Assembly: GCA_039683575.1 (NCBI GenBank)
Contig: JBDKRC010000202.1
Span: forward strand, 1-14,221
Origin: Armatimonadia bacterium
GTDB lineage: Bacteria > Armatimonadota > Zipacnadia > Zipacnadales > UBA11051
Direction of reading: 5' to 3'
Length of the DNA: 14,221 bases
Each line of letters begins with the position of its first letter. Position 1 is the first letter of the stretch. Below, piece after piece: positions 1-12,030 of this stretch. A model generated the notes under the pieces. It had not been told where the DNA came from. It was given only the letters and a program-made list of their open reading frames with translations, and made no database searches. The position numbers were made by a program, and so were the translations under genes.

Positions 1-50
1 TCGGTGGCGGCCTGGCTGAGCGGGTGGAGGTCGATGAAAAGTGGGTGCAT
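1..50 (-). CDS. 5' end of the next gene of the portal operon (MHPLFIDLHPLSQAAT...), truncated by the window edge
   Basis: ATG at 50-48 and an open frame to the window end, same strand as the portal. Only 16 codons are visible and there is no clear SD. Confidence 0.45.
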   Translation of the reverse strand, partial: MHPLFIDLHPLSQAAT

Positions 51-60
51 TCTAGTTCAC

Positions 61-280
61 TTGCCGGCGGATGAATCGCCCCTGGCTGGCAGGGCTGCGG
101 TGGGGGCCGCAGTAGCGGACCCCGCCAGCCGGGGCTCCCCCTTGCGACTATCCCGAGGGACAGAGGGACGCGCGTTCAGCTTTTCCTGCCGTCCGACGTT
201 GCCGCCGGCCAGACCGCGAGCTGAGCGCGGTGAAGTGTACCCGGCCGTTTCGCCCCGGCCGGCCCTGTCAGGATTCAGGG
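61..280 (-). ncRNA. Candidate highly structured non-coding RNA, unknown family
   Basis: At least seven helices: CCCUG/CAGGG, CCGGCCG/CGGCCGG, ACCGCG/CGCGGU, CCGGCG-GCAA-CGUCGG, CUGUCC-CUCG-GGAUAG, GCCCC+GGCUGGCGGGG/CCCUGCCAGCC+GGGGC, CUGCGG/CCGCAG. G-U wobbles and a GNRA loop appear only on the minus strand. Two possible loop pseudoknots. Confidence 0.62.
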
Positions 281-595
281 TATGTGTGGGCTTGATCCTT
301 TCTTGGCTGGCTTCTCCAGCTCGTACTGCTCGGCCTTGGCCTCCGGCGGGATGCCGATGAAGCGCCGGTGACCGTGCTGGTTCTGCACGATCAGGCCGTC
401 CTCGCCGTGATCGAGCACCTTGTAGTCCTGCTGTGCACGTGACTTGTGCCCGGCCAGGTGCTCCCACTTGAGCTTGTGCTTCTGACCTTCATGCTCGACG
501 GTGCAACCGTGGCGGCCGGTGCAGAGCACCTTGCCGACCTTGGGCTCACCTCGGTGGTGGAAGAACACCTCATCGCCGGGATAGGCGCGGCTCAC
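275..595 (-). CDS. Small phage hypothetical protein (~106 aa) with two internally similar beta-rich units
   Basis: GTG start at 595 overlaps the portal TGA (GTGA coupling). Sequence SRAYPGDEVFFHHRGEPKVGKVLCTGRHGCTVEH...YKVLDHGEDGLIVQNQHG; GC-ending codons like its neighbours. Confidence 0.8.
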   Translation of the reverse strand: MSRAYPGDEVFFHHRGEPKVGKVLCTGRHGCTVEHEGQKHKLKWEHLAGHKSRAQQDYKVLDHGEDGLIVQNQHGHRRFIGIPPEAKAEQYELEKPAKKGSSPHIP

Positions 596-2295
596 GGATC
601 CACCCTCCACACCGGCAGGCCAAATGACTTCTGCATGTCCTCGCCGTTGTCGTCCTGCGGGGCGTCCTTACCGGGAACCTGATCCTGATCAGGAGCGCCG
701 CCCGGCTGACCGGGCTGGCCGGGCCCATTGCCGAACTGGCCAACGCCACCGGGTGCGTCCGGGTTGCCGTAGTCTTCCTGGCTGCCCTGCAGGTTCTGCA
801 TGTAGGCGCCCATGACCACCTGGTTGAGCGGTGCGTCGCCCCACTCGACCTCTTCCCAGCCGCGAGCCTTGCGGGCCTCGTTGACCGTACGGAGAGCCGT
901 TTCTTCGACCCAGGACTGCTCCGGGGAGAGCTCGTCAAGGCCGGTCCAGCGGAAGCAATACTTGTCTCCAAAGTCGGAGACGATGTAGTCGCTGAAGATG
1001 TCCTCGTAGTAGGCCAGCAGCGGGCGCAAGCCCTTGTCCTTGGAGTTGATCAGCTTCTCTTCGGTGTCGCTGCCGGACAGCGAGCTTGTGCCCGCCGTGA
1101 AGCTCTCGAAGTTGATCTCGTCCGGCGCCATGCCGTAGATCGCGCAGATGATCGAGGTCAGGAAGGTCATCCACTTGGCGAACATGATCTCGTTCACGTC
1201 GACGCCGAAGTTCTCGAAGGAGGCCTTCGATTCCTGATTCTTCGAGACCATGACCGGCAGGGTCCAGGCATTGTTGATGCCCTTGACCATGGCGTTCCAG
1301 TAGCGCTTGAAGGCCGACAGATCCTCGTTTGAGTAGTCGCCGGAGAGGTGCAGCAGACCCTTCGGGATGGAGTTGCTGTCGAAGTATTTCAGGTTGTAGG
1401 TCATGGCGTTCAGCAGGCCAGTGACCACCTTGATCAGCAGCTCGGTCTCCGAGAACCCATAGGAACCCACCATGACGTCCGTGCGCGGGTTACGCGGCAC
1501 ATAGATCAGGTCGTCATAGGTGTAGGCGGCGCGCAGGTTCCCTTGGACCACCTGCAGGGCAAAGATCTCGTCGTCGCCGCGGTACCCGGATTCGGAGCAC
1601 AGGCGGACAGTGGCGCCGTCGACAGCGTACATGCCATCAAGACCCAGCGACTTGTCCCGCTTCCACTCGGTTTCAATCGGCATCGAGTCCAGCACGAGGC
1701 TGTCGCGGACCAGTTTCGCCATGAAGTTGGAGAAGTTGTCGCGCTTCAGGCGCATGCGCTGGCGAGGGTTGGTTTCCCAGCCGCAGTTGGTGAAGAAGCC
1801 CTCGAGCAGCTTGATTGACTGCTGTTCCTGCTCGCCGAGTTTGGCAGTCGGGTCTTTCGGGCGAATGGCGAAGCCCGGCCCCTTCCCGCTCTCCTGCACC
1901 CGGCAGAAGCGGCGTACCTGGCGCTGGCGCGTCCAGATCACCGAGGACAGGATCGGCGTCTGGTCGACCATGGTCCGCATCAGGTCGAAGGCAAATGCGC
2001 CAGGCCGCTCGTAGTAATCCCCAAGCAGCTCGACCCGGCGTTCATCCAGGAACACCGACTGCATGCCAGGCTGCTTCTCCTTGATCGCTTTGGACGGGAA
2101 CGGGATGACGTTGGGCTTGGTCAGCGCTTTCGTCATCTCCTGTTCGGCGTACTGGTTGCGCATGAACTCCACGACCGGGAGCATGTCGACGACGCTCGAC
2201 GGCATCGCCGCTTTCTGGGCGACAGCCATGGCGTCGCGCTGCTCATCGGCAGGTGCGGCGGGATTGTGGGCTACTTCAAGGGCTTTATCGCTCAT
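592..2295 (-). CDS. Phage portal protein
   Basis: 567 aa with portal-like segments: LVRDSLVLD..IE, YAVDGATVR, DLIYVPRNPRTD...YGFS, NLKYFDSNSIPKGLL, ICAIYGMAPDEI, GLRPLL, RTVNEARK..G; low-complexity P/G/Q tail. Confidence 0.88.
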   Translation of the reverse strand: MSDKALEVAHNPAAPADEQRDAMAVAQKAAMPSSVVDMLPVVEFMRNQYAEQEMTKALTKPNVIPFPSKAIKEKQPGMQSVFLDERRVELLGDYYERPGAFAFDLMRTMVDQTPILSSVIWTRQRQVRRFCRVQESGKGPGFAIRPKDPTAKLGEQEQQSIKLLEGFFTNCGWETNPRQRMRLKRDNFSNFMAKLVRDSLVLDSMPIETEWKRDKSLGLDGMYAVDGATVRLCSESGYRGDDEIFALQVVQGNLRAAYTYDDLIYVPRNPRTDVMVGSYGFSETELLIKVVTGLLNAMTYNLKYFDSNSIPKGLLHLSGDYSNEDLSAFKRYWNAMVKGINNAWTLPVMVSKNQESKASFENFGVDVNEIMFAKWMTFLTSIICAIYGMAPDEINFESFTAGTSSLSGSDTEEKLINSKDKGLRPLLAYYEDIFSDYIVSDFGDKYCFRWTGLDELSPEQSWVEETALRTVNEARKARGWEEVEWGDAPLNQVVMGAYMQNLQGSQEDYGNPDAPGGVGQFGNGPGQPGQPGGAPDQDQVPGKDAPQDDNGEDMQKSFGLPVWRVDP

Positions 2296-2302
2296 GCCCT
2301 GA

Positions 2303-2318
2303 AGGATGCTGTCACGAC
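2303..2318 (-). promoter_or_regulatory. Putative phage late promoter for the portal operon (GTCGTGAC-AG-CATCCT)
   Basis: Same octamer and 2-nt spacing to a -10-like YANNNT box as ahead of the tail and terminase genes; 7 nt from the box to the portal ATG. Confidence 0.65.
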
Positions 2319-2392: not shown

Positions 2393-4699
2393 ATGACCGA
2401 TAACGCCCCTGAGCAAGTCCCTGGAAAGCAGCTTCAAGACCTCGACCCTGCCAGCCCCATCACTGCAACAAGCTGGTTCCTGGTGGAGCAGAATGGGGTA
2501 TCCAAGAGGGCTAATGCTGAAGACTTGCGTCCCTACTTCAAGGGCGACCAAGGTGATCAGGGCATCCAGGGGCCCATGGGCGACATCACCCCAGGGCTTG
2601 AGGCGCTTCAGCTTGATGTGCAGGAAAATGCATCTGTGGCGGAAAGCGCGGCAGATGCTGCAGTCGTCGCACAGGGACTCGCCAGCAACAGCGCCACTAC
2701 TGCATCCGGTAGCGCCGCAGCCGCCCTCCAATCGGAGCAAAATGCGCTGGCCTACAAGGCGACCGCTGAGCAGGCGGCCAGCGATGCCAATACAGACGCA
2801 CTTGCTGCCGCCCAGAGCAAGCTAGATGCCGCTGACAGCGCATCGACCGCAGCATCGCATAAGGACAACGCCGAAGTGGCGGCTCTTGCGGCCGCTCAGT
2901 CCGAGGCCAATGCCAGCGACTCTGAAAATGCCGCTACCGCATCGGCATTGACTGCGACCACTCAAGCCAGCCTCGCCACCGCCGCCAAGACCGCCGCCGA
3001 GTCCGCCCGCGATGCGGCGCAACTGTCTGCTGGGGTCTATGTGGATACGGCTGCCGGGCTGGCCGCAACGACCAGCGGCGATTATTTCAGCGTGCCATCG
3101 GCGGATTCCTCTGAGTACCTGATTCTTTACCGCAACAACCTCGGCGTGGCGGACGAGATCAAGCGTTACCCGAGTGCCGATGCTGCTGCAGCCTACATCA
3201 CATCTCTCACTGATGAGGTATTTTTCCGCGTTGTTCCCAACCTGTTTTCGGCGGCAAATCTACTGGTGCGCCGGTACACCGCCGCAGGCACGTTCAACGA
3301 CTATACCGCTGGCTATTCGCAGACCGCAACCGGCGACGGTCTGCGCGTCGCGATTCCGTCAGCCGGCTCCGGCAAGATCAAGCACTATGTCAGGACTGGC
3401 GTTTCGTGGACCTCTGAGTCGATGACTGCCGAGTTTCTTGACGTTGCATCACTGTCTGAATCGGCGGCTGTCGGCATTGGCGCCATCATTGGCGGCCAAT
3501 ACATCGCCTACACGCTATCGAAGACTGGTAACCTATTTGTGGTGAATGGCTTTGGCTCTACGCTAATTGTTTCTGGCCTCGGCACCTATGCCGCTGGTGA
3601 CGACATCAAGTTCGCGCTCCATGGCGGCTACCTGCGAGTCTATGTCAATGGCAGCCAGTGGTACGAAGCCGCCATCGCAGAGGACTTCACTGCCGGTGAG
3701 CTTATCTTTGCGCAGATAGGCTTCCTGTCATATACCGGAAAGGTCACGTCCAACTTCGACCCAGTGCGCACCTATATCTCCGACTCGGTCGCTTCCGCTT
3801 TCCCCAATGTCTTTTACAGCTACTCGCTCACGGGCGGCTCTACTTCCGGGAATGAGTTTTTTATGGTGTATTCGCGGTTGGCGGGGGAGCGCTACGTCGG
3901 TTACAAGATCGGCCGTTTTGTGCATGTCTCTGAGCTGGTCTTTGCTGACTACTGGCGGCTGGAAGAGGCGGCGTTGTTCATCTACAACCCGCTGGAAAAC
4001 CAGTTTGAAAAGACCGGCGTCGTGCTGCTGGGGAGTGGTGAAAACGAGTGTGTCTGGAAGCGGAATTCATCCAAGGACGACTTTACGGGCGGCATCCACG
4101 GCGACGAAAAAACCACCGCCGTTTCGTTCTTTGCTGGCGGTGTTGAGATCGACCCGGCGCTGCTGTCGTCCGCCATTGCGCTCACCCCGTGCGATAGCTT
4201 CAGCTACAAGGTGCTGTCCAACATGCACGCTACTGCCGAGGGCGGCGTGCCGATTGCGGGGCATCCTGTCGAGTGCACCCACATCAAGGTCACGTCATTT
4301 CACGGTGGCGGATACAGGACGTTTAATAGGATGACCTGGGTGAATCCGGGACTGGTGACGCTCTGGTATGCCGGGATCGCCTGTATCGGCAAGGACGCCG
4401 CCTCCGACGGGTATACGGACGGCACTTATGTGGCTGCGGCCTACACTGGCTCTGGCGATAATGTTGATAAGGCTGTCGGGCCGCGTGAATTCCACGCATG
4501 GAATGCGACGCTCGGGTACTCGGCAGAAGTGACCAGCCGAATCATGAAGCCTGCAGATCAGGACGCAGCCGCAACCCTGTTCATTCATGACCGCACTACC
4601 GACAGCAAGTATTACCGGCGTCAGGCCCCGGTCACGGTCGTGGCTGGCGACGTGTGGGAGAGCGAGATGACGGTCGCCTACTCAACGAGCAATCCGTAA
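2393..4699 (+). CDS. Tail fibre / tail spike-like virion protein (putative receptor-binding protein)
   Basis: 768 aa. N-terminal QLQDLDPA...FLVEQNGVSKR motif, short collagen-like GDQGDQGIQGPMG, long Ala/Ser-rich coiled coil, and a YVDTAAGLAATTSGDYFSVPS...YLILYRN module typical of prophage tail proteins, followed by a beta-rich C-terminal region. Confidence 0.72.
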   Translation: MTDNAPEQVPGKQLQDLDPASPITATSWFLVEQNGVSKRANAEDLRPYFKGDQGDQGIQGPMGDITPGLEALQLDVQENASVAESAADAAVVAQGLASNSATTASGSAAAALQSEQNALAYKATAEQAASDANTDALAAAQSKLDAADSASTAASHKDNAEVAALAAAQSEANASDSENAATASALTATTQASLATAAKTAAESARDAAQLSAGVYVDTAAGLAATTSGDYFSVPSADSSEYLILYRNNLGVADEIKRYPSADAAAAYITSLTDEVFFRVVPNLFSAANLLVRRYTAAGTFNDYTAGYSQTATGDGLRVAIPSAGSGKIKHYVRTGVSWTSESMTAEFLDVASLSESAAVGIGAIIGGQYIAYTLSKTGNLFVVNGFGSTLIVSGLGTYAAGDDIKFALHGGYLRVYVNGSQWYEAAIAEDFTAGELIFAQIGFLSYTGKVTSNFDPVRTYISDSVASAFPNVFYSYSLTGGSTSGNEFFMVYSRLAGERYVGYKIGRFVHVSELVFADYWRLEEAALFIYNPLENQFEKTGVVLLGSGENECVWKRNSSKDDFTGGIHGDEKTTAVSFFAGGVEIDPALLSSAIALTPCDSFSYKVLSNMHATAEGGVPIAGHPVECTHIKVTSFHGGGYRTFNRMTWVNPGLVTLWYAGIACIGKDAASDGYTDGTYVAAAYTGSGDNVDKAVGPREFHAWNATLGYSAEVTSRIMKPADQDAAATLFIHDRTTDSKYYRRQAPVTVVAGDVWESEMTVAYSTSNP

Positions 4700-4815
4700 C
4701 GCTGACCCCTGATACAAAGTCAGGTTATCTCCAGCCCAATACCCTGAAAAATTAACCACATACGCGCGCTCGACCAAAATCCGGGCGCGCATAGGGCGCT
4801 TTTACTCAAAATTGC

Positions 4816-4845
4816 TTGCCTTTGCTCTTTTTTGAGGCGTAGAAT
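4816..4845 (+). promoter_or_regulatory. Sigma70-type promoter for the rdgC operon (TTGCCT-18 bp-TAGAAT)
   Basis: Near-consensus -35 (4816-4821) and -10 (4840-4845) in an AT-rich intergenic region, 30 nt before an ATG that has an AAGGGGAAG RBS. Confidence 0.6.
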
Positions 4846-4875
4846 CCACCCAGCAACCAGCAAAGGGGAAGATTC

Positions 4876-5172
4876 ATGGCCGACCGCATCGCTCTCGCTC
4901 TCGCCGCCTGCGAAGGGCTCACCAACGAAGAGCTCGCAGCCAGAGGCGCCGGCTCGTTCAAGAAGATGATCCGCCGCAAGCGCATGTACGCCACCGTTGC
5001 CAGAGGGCTGGCGATGGACGTGCAGGTCGTTGCCGGCAAGCTCGCCAAGGCTCAGGACGAGGCCGCCAAGGCCAAGGCCACCGCCTCCATGCTGGAATCT
5101 CTCGACGCGCCGATCACCGACACCTCGCAGGCCCAGGAGCTCCTGGCCAGCGCCTTGCAGAAAGGGGGCTGA
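4876..5172 (+). CDS. Phage hypothetical protein (98 aa, helical)
   Basis: RBS AAGGGGAAG, strong GC3 bias; the N-terminus ADRIALALAACEGLTNEEL resembles a motif seen in phage early proteins. Confidence 0.75.
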   Translation: MADRIALALAACEGLTNEELAARGAGSFKKMIRRKRMYATVARGLAMDVQVVAGKLAKAQDEAAKAKATASMLESLDAPITDTSQAQELLASALQKGG

Positions 5173-5223
5173 TGCCCGACCCGCCGCCCGGTCGGTCACC
5201 GGGTACCCGACAAGAGAAAGGAC

Positions 5224-6138
5224 ATGTTACGACTCATCAAGAACGCCATTGTTTTCAAGGCGGCGCTGCCTGCCGCCGAACACATGACCACCCATCTGGC
5301 CGAGCTGCCTCACGGCCCCCTCACCGAGGCACAGTTGTGCCGGACCAGCTTCGTCCCGAACAGCACGACCAACGAGCTCGTGACCCCCTTCGAGGGCGGC
5401 TATTCCTTCTGTCTCCGCATGGACGAGAAGATCCTGCCGACGTCGATCGTGCGGGCCAGGGCTGCTGAGCGCTTCGCCGAGGCCGAGGCCAAGATGACGC
5501 GGCGCCTCAAGAAGGTCGAGCGTGACGCCATCCGTGAGCAGGTGTTCCTCGAGCTCGCTAAGGTTGCCCTGATCAAGACCACCGTCGTCACGGCCTTCTA
5601 TCACCATGCCGAGCAGCTGCTGGTCGTTGCCACCCCGAGCAAGCGTCTGGCGCAGGTGCTGATCGCCTTAGTCATCAAGGTTGTCGGCTCGGTGAAGACC
5701 GAGACCATCCGCATCAGCGACATCAAGCACGGCCTGACCACGCGCCTTGGCAACCACTTGGAAGGTGCTGTCGACAATCCGCCGTTCGGTGACTTCGAGC
5801 TGGGTGAATTCTGTGAGCTGAAGAAGGGCAGCGAGAAGGTCAGCTACCAGATCAGCGACCTCAGCACCGCCTCCAGCGGGCTCAGCGACGCCATTGGCGA
5901 TGGCTTCGAGGTGGATCGCATTCAGCTGACCTACAAGGACGTGACCTTTAAGCTGACCGCTGATTTCCACTTCAAGTCCGTGACCTTCGCCACCGAGCTC
6001 GAGCACGACGAGGCCGAGGCCTGCGATCCGGCCTTCATCTGGCGCCACGAAGCGTCTGTCCAGCTGCTGCAGTTTGCGGCCGTAGTGACGACGGTCTGCG
6101 ACCTGCTGGGCTACCAGCCGCCAGCCAACGAGGCCTGA
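5224..6138 (+). CDS. rdgC: Recombination-associated protein RdgC (phage-encoded)
   Basis: 304 aa, typical RdgC length. IKNAIVFK N-terminus, SFVP...ELV, DEKILPTSIVR, RRLKKVERDAIREQV, FELGEFCELK, VTFKLTADFHFKSV. Confidence 0.88.
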   Translation: MLRLIKNAIVFKAALPAAEHMTTHLAELPHGPLTEAQLCRTSFVPNSTTNELVTPFEGGYSFCLRMDEKILPTSIVRARAAERFAEAEAKMTRRLKKVERDAIREQVFLELAKVALIKTTVVTAFYHHAEQLLVVATPSKRLAQVLIALVIKVVGSVKTETIRISDIKHGLTTRLGNHLEGAVDNPPFGDFELGEFCELKKGSEKVSYQISDLSTASSGLSDAIGDGFEVDRIQLTYKDVTFKLTADFHFKSVTFATELEHDEAEACDPAFIWRHEASVQLLQFAAVVTTVCDLLGYQPPANEA

Positions 6139-6185
6139 CCCCCATCCGCCCGGCTCCGGCCGGGCCCCACTCCAGAGAGAAAGGT

Positions 6186-6776
6186 ATGAGCGTTTACAAG
6201 CGTTATTTCGAAATCAAGGACGCGGCCACACTCGCAAAGATTGACCAGATCCTGGCTGATCAGGAGGCCTATAACGAAGGGCTAAAAAAGATCAAAGAGG
6301 ACATCTGTGCAACCCAGGTATTCACCTACAGCCGCAGCGGACGCCTTGCAGGTTTCGCGTTTGCTTCCCCTCATGACCTCTCCGATTTCAAGCGCGTAGG
6401 GGGTGCCTGGTTACCGAAGAAGAACACCTCCGTCGGCAGGGCAATCTGGAAGCAGATCAACCGTCTTAAATGCCCCGGGACACTGGATGACGCCCTTAGC
6501 GTCTCAGGAATCTTCCACGAGCTTTGCCTCACTGATGGCAGCATGGGTTATGGCGCCAGTATCTGCGGATCAAAGACCAAAAAACGCTGGTTTGCTGTAG
6601 TGCCGTGGCGCGATGTCGATCCGAAAGAAATGGAGCAGTACAAGGCCGACAATGCGGCCGGCAATCGCTACTGCGCGGCACTTGATCATCTTCAGTGGGT
6701 TCCGCCAGCTGAGTGGGTTGAGATGAAGGAATGGCAGCTGCTGAAGGCCATGGACGAACTGAAGGGGGCGGCATGA
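6186..6776 (+). CDS. Phage hypothetical protein, possibly Eac-like
   Basis: 196 aa, RBS GAGAAAGG. AWLPKKNT..GRAIWKQI and C-terminal PPAEWVEMKEWQL resemble Eac-type phage early proteins (recognition from memory only). More A/T-ending codons than its neighbours. Confidence 0.7.
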   Translation: MSVYKRYFEIKDAATLAKIDQILADQEAYNEGLKKIKEDICATQVFTYSRSGRLAGFAFASPHDLSDFKRVGGAWLPKKNTSVGRAIWKQINRLKCPGTLDDALSVSGIFHELCLTDGSMGYGASICGSKTKKRWFAVVPWRDVDPKEMEQYKADNAAGNRYCAALDHLQWVPPAEWVEMKEWQLLKAMDELKGAA

Positions 6777-11787: not shown

Positions 11788-12030
11788 TCACAGGGGAATC
11801 TTCGCAAGCTCGATCGCCTTGATGAGCCGCTGGTAGTTGGTGGGCTCATGGCCTTCGGATAGCTTCACGACCAGCACGCAGTCGTCGCCAAGCCCCCAAC
11901 GCAGAGCCAGGAAGCTGCCCGGCTCAATGTTGCCAAAGATGTCAATGCTAGGATTGGCGGCAAACGCCTCTGCAGCGCGCTTAGCGAAGGCCTGCTGCTC
12001 TTCCTCTTGCCCGAGGGTGGTCGTCCTCAT
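11788..12030 (-). CDS. Phage hypothetical protein (80 aa)
   Basis: ATGA overlap with the upstream gene, AAGGTG RBS; fills the gap in a co-directional operon. Confidence 0.72.
   Translation of the reverse strand: MRTTTLGQEEEQQAFAKRAAEAFAANPSIDIFGNIEPGSFLALRWGLGDDCVLVVKLSEGHEPTNYQRLIKAIELAKIPL

Follow-up and report, generated by a model that had tools for sequence, protein, structure and literature searches.

The window analysed here is a contig of 14,221 nucleotides (nt; JBDKRC010000202.1, starting at the contig's first base) from the 6.2-Mb assembly GCA_039683575.1, filed as an Armatimonadia bacterium. On its minus strand, between a phage portal protein gene and the next gene of the head-assembly module, lies a folded and conserved RNA (positions 296-74) whose reality we regard as practically certain. 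It belongs to a family of structured phage RNAs that had not been catalogued before. Its core consists of five helices (H1-H4, and P5 enclosing a short hairpin, H5) tied together by the pseudoknots PK1, PK2 and PK0 and possibly by a further one, PK3; a terminal hairpin, P6, follows and extends the element from ~165 nt to ~225 nt. Five helices, two pseudoknots with firm support and up to two more are thereby packed into ~165 nt, and new RNA folds of such complexity are rare. Past finds of this kind include riboswitches, ribozymes and the cores of ribonucleoproteins. As for its role, the explanation that we favour, with slightly less than even confidence, is a discrete and stable non-coding RNA that would be made together with the head genes and would act in trans.

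Homologs and covariation of the RNA core

The gap downstream of the portal gene, or of the small open reading frame (ORF) that follows it, is similar in related loci, even in those without the small ORF. An nhmmer search with a 13-sequence alignment (A1; one iteration) yielded 46 matches, all on the portal strand, and an alignment of 30 distinct core sequences (A2) was turned into a covariance model (R1; 167 positions, 31 pairs). Both strands of 88 related phage sources (535,076 bases) were searched with R1, which found the element in 42 of them, in 36 distinct versions, at E-values between 4.7e-41 and 6.5e-07. The match in the window spans 133-298 (143.9 bits, E 2.3e-37).

Pairs were counted on a model-based alignment (A3) with 36 distinct rows, covering H1-H4, P5 and four crossing pairings. 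Standard pairs occupied 92.3% of 1693 cells, compared to 70.8% in shuffled and 32-46% in slid controls, and the covariation score of 0.545 was reached by none of 500 shuffled alignments (0.180) and stood against 0.058-0.085 in slid controls. Changes on both sides were seen in 43 of the 50 pairs (Table 1 gives the figures for each helix). The counts for the crossing pairs were not fitted to R1 because this model contains none. Moreover, the top 17 column pairs of a blind scan over all possible combinations belonged exclusively to the proposed helices, the base of H5, PK1 and PK2.

An earlier note on this window, made from its sequence alone, had proposed two adjacent pseudoknots in which the halves of one internal single strand pair with the loops of H1 and H3. 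Both covary in the 36 distinct homologs. They also withstood an alignment-free test, in which the duplex energy of each loop with its own strand was compared with that obtained after swapping loops and strands among sequences: not one of 1000 permutations was as good for either PK1 or PK2, while the crossed controls were equalled in 973/1000 (H1 loop with the PK2 strand) and 990/1000 permutations (H3 loop with the PK1 strand). As the blind scan and the swap test agree, the double pseudoknot is real. PK0, which joins the 5' GCCC to GGGC in the H2 loop, was matched by 2/1000 permutations, and its two partners have been lost jointly in loci L023 and L042, where a GCAA or UUCG tetraloop replaces the H2 loop and no 5' GCCC remains. 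A closing helix between the same GCCC and a 3' GGG after P6, obtained with RNAalifold from the first 13 sequences, was dropped because P6 has those G's at its base and the H2 loop is the better partner for GCCC. PK3 (GCGC with GUCGC) has a single varying pair (GC 14, GU 6, CG 4, other 10) and is otherwise invariant; its existence is tentative, with A-A or other non-pairs at the varying pair in 10/34 sequences.

All helices listed in the earlier note were located in the sequence at their minus-strand coordinates. For H5, the inner hairpin (161-158/154-151) stood, while the outer pairs CU...AG gave way to the covarying helix P5, which encloses this hairpin together with a conserved UAGUCGNA block. 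The loop of H4 is of the GNRA type in 28 of 34 homologs, and nucleotides at the junctions are near-invariant, e.g. CGCAGC and UAGUCG. The covariation of the helices and of both pseudoknots across 36 distinct homologs bears out the proposal of a selected, functional RNA.

The strand is equally clear. Among the 1693 pair cells of the homologs, G-U pairs outnumber A-C combinations by 136 to 34, and this excess indicates that the RNA and the portal gene are read in the same direction. The same argument had been made from the imperfect pairs of the window copy and is upheld here, with 42 of 42 R1 matches lying on the portal strand. A comparison of folding energies with dinucleotide shuffles, proposed as a check in the earlier note, came out in favour of the RNA: the minus strand of 51-285 folds with -121.9 kcal/mol (z = -3.30; 0/200 shuffles as good), and the plus strand of the same stretch reaches z = -1.49 (16/200 as good). 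Conservation of the overlapping frame 57..467 (minus) as a protein would have told a different story, but stops occur in all three forward frames in 25 of 34 full-length homologs, core lengths range from 159 to 190 nt and are not multiples of three, and neither this frame nor the frame 1..360 (plus) of the window matched a Pfam family.

That the RNA belongs to no known family was also confirmed. At gathering scores, the 4227 models of Rfam 15 gave no match in the whole window and only three tRNA matches in 12 homolog loci, all elsewhere than the element; at E-values up to 10, the window and the homolog L094 returned noise, with best scores of 12-18 bits against thresholds of 38-162. A full-text literature search found no description of the RNA or of the GTCGTGA motif that accompanies it (see below). 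PMC9503643 covers this phage group, and the accessible part of that paper makes no mention of the RNA; 10.64898/2026.09.22.753630 deals, as far as its accessible part goes, with other RNAs. A screen of IMG/VR by Fremin, Bhatt and Kyrpides (2023; PMC10690425) lists 10,006 unnamed structured-RNA candidates. The element is not described in its abstract or in sections 2.4-2.5, and the word 'portal' occurs nowhere in the text as available, but the element may be among these candidates; most homologs found here come from IMG/VR.

Distribution and layout of the locus

The phages with the element form a widespread group with genomes of roughly 91-95 kb, in which the RNA sits in the head-assembly module. 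Six cultured phages carry it, each in an unannotated gap of 224-273 nt: the Pseudomonas phages Dolphis, Jeremy and Touem01, Aeromonas phage ST4, Yersinia phage fHe-Yen8-01 and Escherichia phage ECML-606-1. In Touem01 (L094), the RNA lies on the plus strand of the locus at 1264-1433, followed by a terminator, and a minus-strand hypothetical coding sequence, Touem01_00051 (1227-1472), is annotated across it. This is probably a mis-called coding sequence, and the annotation can be corrected. Of 11 additional metagenome loci, four were matched by R1 as well. Viral contigs scanned with a strict IUPAC pattern yielded six stretches, four of them on contigs already counted; the other two (L100, L101) had no model match and were rejected as chance. 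In the class of the window's host assembly, the window's own genome was the sole match (1/79), none being found in 78 other genomes, and blastn of window 1-700 against 60 relatives gave short stray matches only. The RNA region is present in one copy in its own genome.

Intact portal-to-head-gene intervals contain the RNA in 25 of 36 cases, duplicates included, and lack it in 11. Bordetella phage PHB04 (L096) has no R1 match in this slot and carries genes there instead; a (p)ppGpp synthetase/hydrolase and a Ser/Thr phosphatase are annotated between its small ORF and the head gene. Inserted genes also stand between portal and RNA in L026, L022 and L054, amounting to 1.7-1.8 kb in L026 and L022. 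The portal-to-head-gene junction is thus a hot spot for accessory cargo. A further observation concerns loci L021, L030 and L072, where an ORF-free stretch of ~150 nt (~5252-5406 in L021) lies between two promoter-like motifs. In L021 it holds CCGCAGCC and a long hairpin resembling the 3' domain of the RNA; it had no R1 match, and the slot may be occupied here by a reduced form of the RNA or by another RNA.

The core is followed by a hairpin of -12 kcal/mol or better in 33 of 35 homolog tails, and in most homologs this hairpin, P6, begins 0-4 nt after P5, without overlap. At least four U within the next 8 nt, as in an intrinsic terminator, were counted in 12 of 35. The earlier note had remarked on the missing U-tract in the window, and indeed P6 is followed there by 2 U in 8 nt and a terminator scan of positions 1-2500 found none; other high-GC members likewise have a P6 without a U-tract.

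A promoter-like motif, GTCGTGA-N3-YANNMT(-N6/7-ATG), is common to these phages. An ATG stands 14-16 nt after GTCGTGA in 105 of 180 distinct contexts, and where the distance is exactly 15 nt (n=85), A is found at +5 in 85/85 and T at +9 in 83/85. The motif reads like a -10 hexamer with the start site on the ATG, a role that we infer from sequence and that would make many mRNAs of these phages leaderless. All four GTCGTGA sites of the window are intergenic (Table 1). In 10 of 34 homologs the motif precedes the RNA's GCCC by 21-26 nt, and this spacing predicts an RNA start at AUCAAGCCC, where conservation begins. The 5' limit of the RNA was set at this point because of both the onset of conservation and the predicted start site in promoter-bearing homologs.

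On the other side of the RNA, the motif precedes the downstream gene in 11 of 31 homologs and is missing in 20, the window among them. In the former, with a motif between RNA and gene, the RNA cannot be the leader of that gene. The motif occurs on both sides of the RNA in L022 only and on neither side in 11 homologs, the window included, while nine homologs show the order promoter, RNA, gene. The distance from the core to the start of the downstream gene is 32-114 nt in 24 of 31 homologs and 363-1026 nt in the remaining seven, whose extra DNA contains no convincing ORF but includes a tRNA-Met(CAT) gene in L019, L023 and L034. Long stretches between RNA and head gene were noted in L084, L087 and L089 (~360-650 nt), L031 (433 nt) and L023 (1026 nt). 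Those of L084, L087, L089 and L031 hold neither a convincing ORF nor a tRNA, and further non-coding elements may reside in such stretches.

In four loci, L018 (which does not contain the downstream gene), L019, L023 and L034, tRNA-Met(CAT) genes are located 140-270 nt downstream of the RNA on the same strand. The tRNA genes of the portal-to-head-gene interval, tRNA-Met(CAT) plus one tRNA-Gly and all on the same strand, were mapped just after the RNA in L018 (5396-5472), L019 (5527-5602), L023 (5083-5159 and 5871-5945) and L034 (5945-6020), and in three loci without the RNA core, namely L021 (5064-5140), L030 (5050-5126) and L072 (5090-5167). Overall, the RNA is a self-contained module with an optional promoter, an optional terminator and insertions on either side.

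Possible functions of the RNA

The variable layouts of this module led us to choose a stable, trans-acting RNA as the preferred explanation, since it fits all of them. In some phages, the RNA would be transcribed from its own promoter and would end at P6 as an intrinsic terminator; in others, including the window, it would arise by read-through from the portal promoter, with P6 shielding the 3' end. The product would be a compact, globular RNA that acts in trans, most likely with a protein partner. The promoter-like motif that 10 of 34 homologs have in front of the RNA, the terminator-like hairpin behind it and the tRNA genes adjoining it in some loci are consistent with such a transcript. As about one third of related phages do without the RNA, it seems to be accessory and not indispensable. 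T4 encodes the stable RNAs C and D beside its phage tRNA genes, and the element resembles them in this position. With ROOL, GOLLD and raiA it shares a complex covarying fold, the phage setting and nearby tRNA genes in some loci; unlike these, it is far smaller (~165 nt core), is matched by none of their models and keeps to one place within the head-gene module.

Several points weigh against a discrete trans-acting RNA. Its stable transcript is a prediction from sequence, the promoter role of the motif is likewise putative, and so is the protein partner. Among the sequencing runs that contain the element, none was registered as RNA, and four runs labelled RNA-Seq are probably DNA. In 20 of 31 homologs, the window included, no motif separates the RNA from the gene, which is a leader-like layout. 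In L094, L065 and L054, a promoter, the RNA, a U-tract hairpin and the gene follow each other with no second promoter, as in an attenuator. Finally, a discrete RNA would need processing wherever P6 lacks a U-tract, as it does in the window and further high-GC members.

The leader-like and attenuator-like layouts are what a cis-acting leader or intercistronic control element would produce, the main rival explanation, which we consider possible but rather unlikely. The core would then decide between a stop at P6 and read-through into the minor head protein gene and the head operon, either as a riboswitch-like attenuator, with a protein or small ligand bound or not, or as a processive-antitermination RNA, for which HK022 put and EAR are the models. 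In favour of this, it is always the same gene that follows the element, in the same orientation; in 24 of 31 homologs this gene begins no more than 130 nt past the end of the core, and in 20 of 31 no motif lies in between. The order promoter, RNA, gene is found in nine homologs, and in 12 of 35 P6 is a terminator with a U-tract. The other genes of these phages seem for the most part to be leaderless, so a structured leader of ~220 nt would stand out. The neighbouring small ORF is KOW-like, as in NusG/Spt5 domains, though the matches are weak. The element also resembles riboswitches with a terminator platform, having a conserved, pseudoknotted, covarying and aptamer-like core, then a hairpin (a terminator in 12 of 35), upstream of one gene.

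However, the motif between RNA and gene in 11 of 31 homologs, and the 363-1026 nt of tRNAs and ORF-free DNA that separate them in seven of 31, are difficult to reconcile with control of that gene. A conserved alternative pairing between core and P6, the switch expected of a terminator and antiterminator, was not found by eye: mutually exclusive pairing was seen in the group of L084, L087 and L089 but not in L094, L022, L012 or L079, and P6 begins 0-4 nt after P5 in most homologs with no overlap. Nor was any known riboswitch class matched, and the ligand is hypothetical. The small ORF and the RNA, moreover, each occur alone.

It is less probable still that the family represents a new class of ornate phage RNA working as an active machine part and not as a regulator, either as a ribozyme or as an assembly or packaging cofactor associated with the portal or procapsid in myoviruses that infect Gram-negative bacteria. 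The ribozyme version, improbable in itself, holds that a self-cleaving or otherwise catalytic RNA processes the polycistronic transcript from portal to head genes. Intergenic regions of phages often harbour small ribozymes; the fold, with its two to four pseudoknots and near-invariant junction nucleotides, is as intricate as those of ribozymes, and in 11 of 31 homologs, the window included, the RNA sits between cistrons with no motif on either side. Yet none of the self-cleaving ribozyme classes in Rfam 15 matched, the cleavage site is hypothetical, and a processing element needs no promoter or terminator of its own, which many homologs have.

A cofactor bound to portal or procapsid, in the manner of phi29 pRNA, appears more doubtful again. 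The earlier note, which named packaging RNA, ribozyme and cis-regulator as possibilities, had drawn this analogy, and some of it can be seen: both are structured RNAs encoded by phages and linked to the portal (here by context), their loops form specific base pairs, and the element lies between portal and head-morphogenesis genes with the same promoter motif as portal and terminase. The analogy gained no support, because the pRNA covariance model found nothing in the window or in L094 even at E-values up to 10, and the loops here have their partner in a single-stranded stretch inside the same sequence and not in another loop. For the H1 loop against the H3 loop, the mean duplex energy was -1.96 kcal/mol and 80/1000 permutations were as good (800 and 991/1000 for the other loop pairs), so complementarity between the loops is not supported. 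The large terminase of these phages is of the gpA type. An essential motor part would hardly be missing from 11 of 36 intact intervals, e.g. in PHB04, and so from about a third of the related phages. If true, the packaging-cofactor version would for the first time extend pRNA-like RNAs beyond the phi29 group.

That there is no RNA, but only chance GC-rich hairpins, a site acting at the DNA level or a coding frame (57..467 minus, 1..360 plus), has next to no probability, for although long, spurious-looking frames span the region in the window and high-GC DNA generally folds well, the shuffle z of -3.30 is confined to one strand, covariation is massive, G-U exceeds A-C, and the frames are broken in 25 of 34 homologs, have lengths that are not multiples of three and match no Pfam family.

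With at least six cultured carriers that have ordinary laboratory hosts, the function of the RNA is open to direct testing at the bench, and its size suits structure determination.

Features of the window and neighbouring genes

Table 1. Features of the RNA element and its surroundings in the window; the pairing column gives the share of cells paired and the pairs changed on both sides among homologs.
Feature	Position	Strand	Details	Pairing	Basis
Whole RNA element	74..296	minus	conserved core 296-136 plus terminal hairpin P6		model R1, R1 column mapping, promoter-motif spacing
5' tail GCCC (PK0)	288..291	minus	partner of GGGC in H2 loop (255-252)	93.9%; 2/4	pair counts, permutations
H1	263..280	minus	CCCUG/CAGGG, 280-276/267-263; 8-nt loop AAUCCUGA	92.6%; 5/5	covariation
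H2	241..262	minus	CCGGCCG/CGGCCGG, 262-256/247-241; conserved loop GGGCGAAA, consensus GGGYUAAR	99.6%; 6/7	covariation
H3	213..231	minus	ACCGCG/CGCGGU, 231-226/218-213; loop CUCAGCU	98.1%; 6/6	covariation
H4	193..208	minus	CCGGCG-GCAA-CGUCGG, 208-203/198-193	90.4%; 6/6	covariation, loop counts
PK1 3' strand CAGGA	184..188	minus	partner UCCUG of H1 loop (273-269)	96.0%; 5/5	covariation, permutations, blind scan
PK2 3' strand AGCUGA	176..181	minus	partner UCAGCU of H3 loop (224-219)	80.7%; 6/6	covariation, permutations, blind scan
GCGC (tentative PK3)	170..173	minus	in near-invariant (A/G)CGCAGC block; tentative partner GUCGC (148-144)		one varying pair
P5	136..168	minus	UCCCUCU 168-162 / AGGGGGA 142-136	87.4%; 6/7	covariation
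P6 terminal hairpin	78..134	minus	~134-78, cap 112-107/100-95; H6 and H7 of the earlier note		window fold
Downstream gene, start	1..50	minus	16 codons (MHPLFIDLHPLSQAAT...), cut off by contig end
106-aa ORF	275..595	minus	conserved		tblastn matches in 52 loci; AlphaFold2 pLDDT 81.1
Portal protein gene	592..2295	minus			PF04860, E 7.8e-16; phrog_12
gpA-type large terminase	9768-7168	minus			PF05876
GTCGTGA	2312..2318	minus	16 nt before portal ATG; nearest such motif upstream of RNA
GTCGTGA	9790-9784	minus	15-16 nt before terminase start
GTCGTGA	11871-11865	minus	15-16 nt before ATG at 11849
GTCGTGA	2349-2355	plus	37 nt before ATG at 2393

A contig from another sequencing run matches window 70-409 with 17 differences and diverges from the window past position 70. 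Two of these differences (window 248 and 251) change the H2 loop from GGGCGAAA to the family consensus GGGCUAAG.

Relatives of the portal protein were found on 63 viral contigs and on five bacterial genome contigs, many of all these contigs being 84-98 kb long; they include those of Bordetella phage PHB04 and of a Microvirga lupini genome contig. The stop of the portal gene overlaps the GTG start of the 106-aa ORF (GTGA at 595-592), and the 3' end of this ORF in turn overlaps the 5' tail of the RNA. From its TGA (277-275) to the ATG of the downstream gene (50-48), the gap measures 224 nt, in line with the ~225 nt estimated in the earlier note. The downstream gene is a homolog of a particle-associated or minor head protein of 381-385 aa, labelled 'particle associated protein' in Yersinia phage fHe-Yen8-01 and 'putative minor head protein' in Morganella phage Mecenats66.

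The 106-aa ORF matched no Pfam or PHROG family. Its AlphaFold2 model consists of two small tandem beta-barrels, and the top Foldseek matches are eIF5A, Tudor domains, Hfq, L24 and the tandem KOW domains of Spt5, all of them weak (E 0.03-0.2). A partnership between this protein and the RNA is a mere idea because the ORF is found in loci without the RNA and the RNA in loci without the ORF.

In the window, the minus-strand terminase and portal genes are separated by three plus-strand genes at 2393-6776, an unusual break in the head-gene module. They encode a 768-aa protein with weak matches to tail-fibre PHROGs, an RdgC homolog (5224-6138) and a 196-aa ORF.

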